Below, piece by piece: positions 2,443 to 3,410 of a DNA stretch of 3,410 nucleotides. The notes under the pieces were generated by a model. It saw only the letters and a program-made list of their open reading frames with translations. It was not told the origin of the DNA and searched no databases. Origin of the DNA: a virus. Its lineage: Duplodnaviria; Heunggongvirae; Uroviricota; Caudoviricetes. The translations under genes were made by a program, and so were the position numbers. The stretch is from the IMG/VR virus record IMGVR_UViG_2695420687_000017, one strand, 5' to 3'. Within the stretch, counting starts at the first letter, position 1. The number at the start of each line of letters is the position of its first letter.

Positions 2443-3410
2443 TGCGGCCCGACATTCAGAGGCGTTTCGCCGTTCGCCAGAGGATTGCCGTCCAGCGCCA
2501 CCGACCAGTGTAGAATTTCGTTATCGCTATGACGGAATAAATATTCACTGGTCACTTCGAGTGTTCGTTCAAGCAAGCGAAACTGGAAAAACTGCTGCGC
2601 GTGTTTCGCTTCCGTTAGTGCCGGATGCGGCGTGCGATCGGCAAAGACCAGGCCGTTCATACAGAACTGGCGGTCATTAGGCGTATCGCCAAAATCACCG
2701 CCGTAAGCTGACCACGGATGACCTTCTTCATCATATTTAATCAGCGACTGATCCACCCAGTCCCAGACAAAACCGCCTTGTAAACGCGGATATTGACGAA
2801 ACGCCTGCCAGTATTTAGCAAAACCGCCGAGGCTGTTGCCCATCGCGTGGGCGTATTCACAAAGGATCAGCGGACGCAACTCGCCGGGCATCGAAAGCCA
2901 TTTTTTAATCGACCATTTCGGCACTGCCGGGAAGGGCTGATCTTCATCCACGCGCGCGTACATTGGGCAGATAATATCGGTTGCCGAGGTGTCTGCTCCA
3001 CCGCCTTCATATTGTACCGGACGGGAAGGATCGACGGATTTAATCCAGCGATACAGCGCGTCGTGATTAGCGCCGTGGCCCGATTCATTACCCAGAGACC
3101 AGATAATCACGCATGGGTGATTGCGATCGCGTTGTACCATCCGCGTGACGCGTTCGCTCATTGCGGGTAACCAACGTGGATCGTCTGCCAGGCGATTCAT
3201 CGGCACCATGCCGTGGGTTTCAATATTGGCTTCATCCACCACATACAGGCCGTAGCGGTCGCACAGTGTGTACCACAGCGGATGGTTCGGATAATGCGAA
3301 CAACGCACGGCGTTAACGTTGTTCTGCTTCATTAGCAGGATATCCTGCACCATCGTCTGCTCATCCATAACCTGACCGTGCAGAGGATGATGTTCATGAC
3401 GGTTAACGCC
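2136..3410 (-). CDS. lacZ: Chimeric ORF: internal beta-galactosidase (LacZ) fragment fused in frame to a C-terminal phage DUF551-like segment; 5' end outside the window
   Basis: Continuous minus-strand reading frame from the window edge ([31 protein letters not shown]...) to TGA at 2138-2136. The first ~323 codons in the window match E. coli LacZ as I recall it (roughly residues 353-675), including SLGNESGHG (acid/base Glu461) and [12 protein letters not shown] (nucleophile Glu537), with scattered substitutions relative to K-12. After ...[10 protein letters not shown] the sequence ([43 protein letters not shown]...[15 protein letters not shown]) has no LacZ similarity. Confidence 0.85.
2141..2148 (-). 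promoter_or_regulatory. Shine-Dalgarno GGAGGTGA serving the 27/28-aa hydrophobic ORF
   Basis: Plus strand reads tcacctcc at 2141-2148; the minus strand is GGAGGTGA, perfectly complementary to the 16S rRNA 3' end, 4 and 7 nt upstream of the two candidate ATGs. Confidence 0.4.
2443..3410 (-). pseudogene. lacZ: lacZ fragment: truncated after about LacZ residue 675 (within domain 4); domain 5 and C-terminus absent, N-terminal part outside the window
   Basis: LacZ homology ends at codon caa (Gln) at 2444-2442. K-12 LacZ continues GKQLIELPELPQPESAG..., whereas this sequence continues with unrelated phage-like residues. A LacZ lacking its C-terminal ~350 residues is not expected to be an active enzyme. 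Confidence 0.85.

Follow-up and report, generated by a model that had tools for sequence, protein, structure and literature searches.

The in-frame fusion of lacZ to a phage DUF551 gene that is carried by a 3,410-nucleotide stretch of DNA deposited as a viral record (the whole of which is termed here the window) is very probably a false join within a chimeric draft assembly of Escherichia albertii, GCA_000936005.1, and not a rearrangement of the genome. Because the same assembly contains lacZ uninterrupted across the breakpoint and equivalent joins throughout, a genuine rearrangement is very unlikely. On the account favored here: the contigs of GCA_000936005.1 would be chains of genuine blocks, roughly 0.1-4 kb in length, drawn from unrelated chromosomal positions; these blocks would have been either placed end to end or fused where a few bases overlapped spuriously; and positions at which the merged sequences conflict would have been written as N. 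In the real genome, lacZ most likely extends beyond codon 676, ends at its normal stop and has prpE as its next gene; a lambdoid prophage with an intact DUF551 gene is most likely integrated at mlrA; and lacI, lacY and lacA are most likely missing, as in all E. albertii.

Gene content of the window and the fused reading frame

The window is the reverse complement of nucleotides 3-3412 of contig CDRK01000089.1 (11,342 bp) of the E. albertii draft, and all real genes within it lie on the minus strand. On that strand the frame running from position 3410 to position 2139 is stop-free and encodes 424 amino acids. Aligned with the K-12 protein, residues 1-323 of this frame correspond without gaps to LacZ residues 354-676 (303 of 323 residues, or 94%, being identical); residues 324-424 are the C-terminal 101 residues of a 196-residue phage DUF551 protein and match WP_024247164.1, from E. 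coli O145:H28 RM12761, at all but one position (100/101). The order of Pfam domains is accordingly Glyco_hydro_2_C (E = 5e-119), LacZ_4 and DUF551 (E = 6.5e-20), and since the LacZ_4 model is matched at positions 1-47 of 87 only, the cut falls inside domain 4.

The lacZ portion (window 2441..3410, minus strand) is an internal fragment of an E. albertii allele comprising codons 354-676 and the first base of codon 677. It spans the end of the TIM barrel and the first half of domain 4, and it leaves the window at position 3410, the contig itself ending 2 nt further on. Both catalytic glutamate motifs are retained relative to K-12 LacZ, as an earlier note on this DNA had stated: SLGNESGHG, which contains E461, and CEYAHAMG, which contains E537. 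Judged by sequence, an acid/base (E461) and a nucleophile (E537) set within a GH2 TIM barrel would place the fragment among the GH2 beta-galactosidases. A LacZ protein that ended at residue 676 would lack domain 5 and half of domain 4, and would be inactive by what is established of LacZ structure and function.

The remainder of the window is the integrase-proximal arm of a lambdoid prophage. The 3' part of the DUF551 gene (2136..2440, minus strand), recognized by its protein match and by Pfam, runs from the second base of codon 96 through codon 196 and the stop codon. Four complete minus-strand genes follow, each supported both by the list of open reading frames and by the annotation of an identical E. 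coli prophage: a DUF4222 gene of 80 codons (1806..2048; also by Pfam), a hypothetical gene of 44 codons (1668..1802), the excisionase gene xisR of 84 codons (1395..1649; also by PF06806) and a tyrosine integrase gene of 428 codons (75..1361; also by the Pfam domains Arm-DNA-bind_2 and Phage_integrase). Positions 1..74 hold the prophage end, that is, the att boundary inside mlrA (also called yehV); the match to the E. coli O145:H28 prophage stays perfect (100%) as far as position 2, and in the host flank past the left end of the window identity to E. coli falls to 89%.

The lacZ-DUF551 junction

The exact breakpoint lies between window position 2441, the last base of lacZ, and position 2440, the first base of the phage (positions 972 and 973, respectively, of contig CDRK01000089.1), and not at 2443, where the earlier note had put it: the phage match stops at 2440 and the lacZ match begins at 2441. 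On the coding strand, lacZ ends in CAAG and the phage sequence starts with AACACC, as was established by comparing the join (2440..2441) with a native lacZ (from a second contig of the same assembly, CDRK01000135.1) and with a native prophage (contig L089, one of seven described below). The contig reads ...GGGCCGCAAG up to the join and AACACCATGATG... after it; native lacZ continues past the breakpoint as GTAAACAG, and the native phage sequence that precedes the breakpoint is ...CCACAATC. The earlier note's statement that everything after about residue 675 is replaced is therefore right for the deposited sequence, in which DUF551 begins at residue 677, but very probably not for the genome.

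The join is both blunt and in frame. This three-way comparison with the native sequences revealed no microhomology, shared bases, linker, or recognizable or restriction site at the join; the idea of an origin by ligation or from 3C/Hi-C material was rejected accordingly. Preservation of the frame, which is expected by chance one time in three, is interpreted as having arisen by chance. Unlike two of the three joins in contig CDRK01000089.1, the join within the window contains no N's, and so it lacks the most direct mark of an artifact.

The source contig is a mosaic

Contig CDRK01000089.1 consists of four colinear blocks from four distant chromosomal loci, connected by three joins, with every breakpoint falling within a gene. 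Block 1 (contig positions 1-972) is lacZ', which is 88.4% identical in nucleotide sequence to lacZ of MG1655; block 2 (973-4997) is 'DUF551-int-mlrA-yohO-yehW-yehX' and is 100% identical to a contig assembled from ERR738819; block 3 (about 5022-7562) is ygeX'-ygeY-hyuA', 91.9% identical to K-12 at 3.008-3.011 Mb; and block 4 (7558-11333) is gss'-yghU-hybG-F-E-D', 93.0% identical to K-12 at 3.137-3.141 Mb. No mobile or IS element and no repeat was found at any of the three joins. Runs of N occur at joins 2 and 3 (positions 4998-5019 and 7563-7568), where, over a forced overlap of 15-25 nt, those bases on which the two native sequences agree are kept and an N is placed where they differ. Such N's, placed exactly at the mismatches between native sequences, are the hallmark of a consensus imposed upon a short overlap that is spurious. 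Forced overlaps with N's are thus found at joins 2 and 3 of this contig and, as described below, on either side of the lacZ block in CDRK01000135.1; the window's own join is clean.

These same features bear on whether the blocks were joined by software or in the laboratory. Under the latter explanation, which we consider unlikely though it is the closest competitor, genomic fragments were ligated to one another during library construction (as concatenated inserts or chimeric long molecules), so that the contigs would faithfully report artificial molecules and the junction would still be absent from the genome. Blocks of ~0.1-4 kb from random loci and in random orientation do resemble concatenated sheared fragments; several joins, including that of the window, are clean and blunt without overlap; and the contig ends in unique sequence (mid-lacZ at one end and mid-hybD at the other), as the ends of reads would. 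However, N's located at the mismatches of short forced overlaps reflect the building of a consensus, which points to merging by software instead of ligation, and inspection of the three joins in this contig revealed neither an adaptor nor a linker nor a restriction-site motif. We therefore infer that the blocks were mis-joined computationally and that no physical chimera was involved.

lacZ crosses the breakpoint in the same assembly

A genuine truncation implies a genome in which no lacZ crosses the breakpoint. Yet another contig of GCA_000936005.1, CDRK01000135.1, carries lacZ from about codon 600 to its stop, followed by prpE, and encodes a 419-residue member (P0174) of the same LacZ protein cluster. 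Its lacZ block (9990-11914) is bordered by N's on both sides (at 9989 and at 11915-11917). Over the 231 nt leading up to the breakpoint it is 100% identical to lacZ of the window, after which native lacZ simply carries on; throughout, the block is colinear with, and 99.1% identical to, a native E. albertii lacZ-prpE contig (L084). When the lacZ sequences of the window and of CDRK01000135.1 are merged, they yield one open frame from codon 354 to the normal stop.

These observations bear on several statements of the earlier note. That lacZ is cut inside domain 4 is so in the deposited sequence, as the partial LacZ_4 match indicates, but very probably not in the genome, given that the assembly also has the gene uninterrupted. 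The loss of beta-galactosidase activity that the note predicted falls with the join upon which it rests. Moreover, the note had itself named an intact lacZ-lacY-lacA elsewhere in the genome as an observation that would overturn its reading, and lacZ of CDRK01000135.1, which passes the breakpoint and reaches its stop, is taken here as such an observation.

CDRK01000135.1 is likewise a mosaic, being composed of mukF-mukE-mukB', aga genes, livF/M/H', lacZ', prpE', zapA, rpsF-priB-rpsR, ligA' and glpX-K-F. Within it mukB is broken at about codon 227 of 1486 and ligA is without its first ~223 codons. Both are essential genes, so an arrangement in which they are cut could not be tolerated in a real genome. 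Joins were verified at the flanks of lacZ and at mukB, ligA/ypeB and glpX, and the contig has 14 clusters of N's in 21 kb. Hence multiple further non-syntenic joins inside genes occur in both contigs. The joins at mukB and ypeB are clean and free of N's, as is that of the window; the absence of N's between positions 2441 and 2440 consequently does not set the window's join apart.

The prophage arm in other genomes

The other side of the join also has a native counterpart. An intact gene for the 196-residue DUF551 protein occurs in seven other E. albertii contigs (L086-L092), within the same prophage at mlrA, and these contigs have the normal gene order mlrA-yohO-yehW-yehX-yehY-osmF-bglX-dld. 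Contig CDRK01000089.1 matches the seven only at positions 973-4997. One of them, the Logan contig from ERR738819, is identical to it at all 4,025 bp of the prophage-mlrA block and probably derives from the same or a nearly identical isolate, to judge from 100% identity over 4 kb only. Uninterrupted native sequence is thus available for both sides of the join: for lacZ in the same assembly and for DUF551 in these seven contigs.

Over positions 2-2440, the window matches a prophage of E. coli O145:H28 RM12761 without a single difference (100% identity), and the identity of the phage part to BP-4795, YYZ-2008 and VT1-Sakai, all of them phages integrated at mlrA/yehV, is 96-99.6%. The prophage of the window uses the same integration site as these lambdoid prophages of EHEC and EPEC, with which it shares an int-xis-DUF4222-DUF551 arm at 96-100% identity; the host here is E. 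albertii.

A separate observation concerns the history of this phage. The prophage arm is 100% identical to that of E. coli O145:H28 RM12761/RM13516 (window 1-2440; contig positions 973-3411), and over most of its length it has 99.6% identity to VT1-Sakai and YYZ-2008, whereas the adjoining host DNA from mlrA to yehW (contig positions 3412-4997) is only 89% identical to E. coli, the switch occurring exactly at the att boundary. This difference between arm and host flank indicates that an mlrA/yehV-integrating lambdoid phage has been shared very recently by E. albertii and E. coli.

Searches for the junction elsewhere

A BLAST search with the whole window returned no match spanning the junction among 5,426 complete E. 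coli genomes or among phage records, and the exact 22-nt junction sequence is absent from GTDB species representatives and from IMG/VR. An exact-protein look-up found the fusion protein to be encoded on a single contig, CDRK01000089.1 itself. Among the best 120 protein-database matches to the fused frame there is no combination of GH2 with DUF551, and none of these matches extends past the LacZ part. The junction was therefore not reproduced in independent data, whether genomes, phages, GTDB, IMG/VR or JGI metagenomes.

The JGI metagenomes did contain one match to the 22-nt junction (positions 844-865 of L102, that is, Ga0058704_10000263, with 55% GC). As a candidate second copy of the junction it was rejected: its flanks differ immediately on both sides, and it has no BLAST similarity to the loci compared. 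The match is due to chance, and it illustrates that a 22-mer can be matched by chance in a collection of the size of the JGI metagenomes.

These searches, together with the native sequences just described, weigh upon the proposal that the fusion is a genuine rearrangement, in which illegitimate recombination joined lacZ at codon 676 to DUF551 of the mlrA prophage, either through an inversion or through the capture of a second, partial copy of lacZ. Its product would be an in-frame LacZ(1-676)-DUF551(97-196) protein that is without domain 5 and therefore predicted to be inactive. We regard this as highly improbable. True, in the deposited sequence the bases at the join are unambiguous and the frame stays open; a fusion that was selected and expressed would be in frame (though so would one join in three by chance); and the same 90% protein cluster includes a number of fragments of E. 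albertii lacZ, which may reflect genuine disruption of the gene in other strains. But in addition to lacZ running uninterrupted into prpE within the same assembly, two further N-marked, non-syntenic joins lie within 11 kb of contig CDRK01000089.1; in its sister contig two essential genes, mukB and ligA, are interrupted; the join is free of repeats, IS elements and microhomology; DUF551 is intact in an independent contig (ERR738819) that is 100% identical; and the genomes and metagenomes searched contain no second instance of the junction. An inversion between lacZ and the mlrA prophage was considered specifically. The two loci lie on opposite strands in E. coli K-12, so that a single inversion could in principle give the arrangement seen; while geometrically possible, this was dropped, inasmuch as lacZ crosses the breakpoint in the same assembly and two more unrelated joins accompany it.

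A variant of this proposal is that the join is real in only part of the population: the mlrA prophage would have captured an internal piece of lacZ, giving an in-frame LacZ(...676)-DUF551 fusion beside an intact lacZ. This, too, is very doubtful. If it were true, the capture of lacZ would represent a natural host-gene capture in the early-left region of a phage, and the other joins would be unrelated artifacts.

The host and its lac locus

The source host is, on the evidence of sequence matches, E. albertii. The YghU protein encoded by contig CDRK01000089.1 exactly matches a sequence annotated as E. albertii on 257 contigs; the LacZ allele of the window belongs to a 90% protein cluster whose named members are all E. 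albertii; and the host DNA is about 89-93% identical to E. coli. Full-length matches of window positions 2441-3410 to lacZ of the 5,426 complete E. coli genomes reach at most 89% nucleotide identity (88.4% for MG1655), as compared with 98.8% for the E. albertii contig L084; among the matches listed for GTDB species representatives, which include neither E. coli nor E. albertii, the best lacZ is only 88% identical. The earlier note, in proposing a Lac-negative Escherichia lineage other than K-12, and in arguing against a K-12-derived laboratory construct, was thus correct on both counts.

Laboratory lacZ constructs use K-12 lacZ. An engineered or specialized-transducing phage bearing a lacZ reporter (such as phi80dlacZ, lambda-plac or an Stx-phage::lacZ) would account for the attachment of lacZ to a lambdoid early-left region in the orientation of pL transcription, but it is barely conceivable here: the allele is that of E. 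albertii (88% identical in nucleotide sequence to K-12 and 98.8-100% to E. albertii contigs), on which ground a K-12-derived construct or transducing phage was rejected, and the contig has only an internal piece of lacZ, without vector or linker sequence, and runs on into the E. albertii chromosome.

The native neighbor of lacZ is not prophage DNA, as the earlier note had supposed, but a convergent prpE gene located 36 nt past the lacZ stop, both in CDRK01000135.1 and in L084. In these two contigs lacZ is followed directly by prpE, without lacY, lacA, cyn or cod; hence the note's observation that lacY and lacA are not found downstream is borne out. Its suggestion that lac genes have been lost is correct in that lacY and lacA are absent, but not insofar as this was seen as a property of the locus or strain: in every one of the 34 E. 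albertii strains studied by Ooka et al. (2015, PMC4700944) lacA, lacY and lacI are missing while lacZ is conserved, and E. albertii strain B156 has likewise been described as being without LacI and LacY (PMC6851279). The absence of lacY and lacA is real, but is a known, species-wide trait of E. albertii. The window's allele belongs to this lineage, with which the order lacZ-prpE, without lacY and lacA, agrees; unlike the full-length, conserved lacZ of the published locus (PMC4700944), lacZ of the window appears truncated.

Three further observations concern lacZ sequences encountered along the way. First, the E. albertii LacZ cluster (P0166-P0177) includes several members that are incomplete or altered: P0166 (WP_137647310.1) is a 1003-residue LacZ with an in-frame deletion of 21 residues located 11 residues downstream of E537; P0167 is a 382-residue C-terminal LacZ fragment, with a foreign N-terminus of 23 residues, on a 5.0-Mb contig; and other members are further fragments. 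Some of these may reflect real decay of lacZ, a gene with no known role in E. albertii, and others the effects of contig ends or of assembly. Second, the GTDB representatives of Paraburkholderia terricola, Serratia fonticola and Enterobacter intestinihominis (L004, L005 and L006, respectively) have lacZ genes that are 88.2-88.4% identical to the window in nucleotide sequence, and thus as similar to it as is lacZ of E. coli K-12; that lacZ of the E. coli type should be present in an assembly of Paraburkholderia suggests that contamination or vector sequence is involved. Third, positions 785-2728 of L085 (Logan contig 219 of ERR4578788) contain an open reading frame of 647 residues in which LacI domains are combined with the LacZ TIM-barrel domain, without the N-terminal LacZ domains, and this is followed by a separate LacZ_4/Bgal_small_N reading frame and by lacY; the apparent lacI-lacZ fusion could represent a deletion strain or another assembly artifact.

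Implications

In its general features the assembly resembles known chimeric draft contigs, in which unrelated genuine blocks are joined inside genes with ambiguity codes at forced overlaps, the same locus has different neighbors on different contigs, and essential genes are seemingly truncated. It differs from the usual case in two respects: the density of false joins in GCA_000936005.1 is unusually high (roughly one per 0.1-4 kb), and the join of the window, being free of N's, gives by itself the impression of a plausible biological fusion. A LacZ protein extending only to residue 676, and so without domain 5 and half of domain 4, would likewise resemble those that have lost the omega region, as in omega-complementation; unlike those truncations, however, such a protein is unlikely to exist here, the truncation being an assembly artifact.

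The truncation or fusion of lacZ is almost certainly not a real feature, and the case serves as a caution that assembly alone can produce a gene fusion that is clean and in frame in a publicly available draft genome. GCA_000936005.1 appears to be chimeric throughout, and calls of gene content, pseudogenes or synteny that are based upon it--such as 'truncated lacZ', 'truncated mukB' or 'truncated ligA'--ought not to be relied upon. What is left of the biology had been described before: lacZ is retained by E. albertii, without lacI, lacY or lacA, and the species has lambdoid prophages that integrate at mlrA in common with EHEC.
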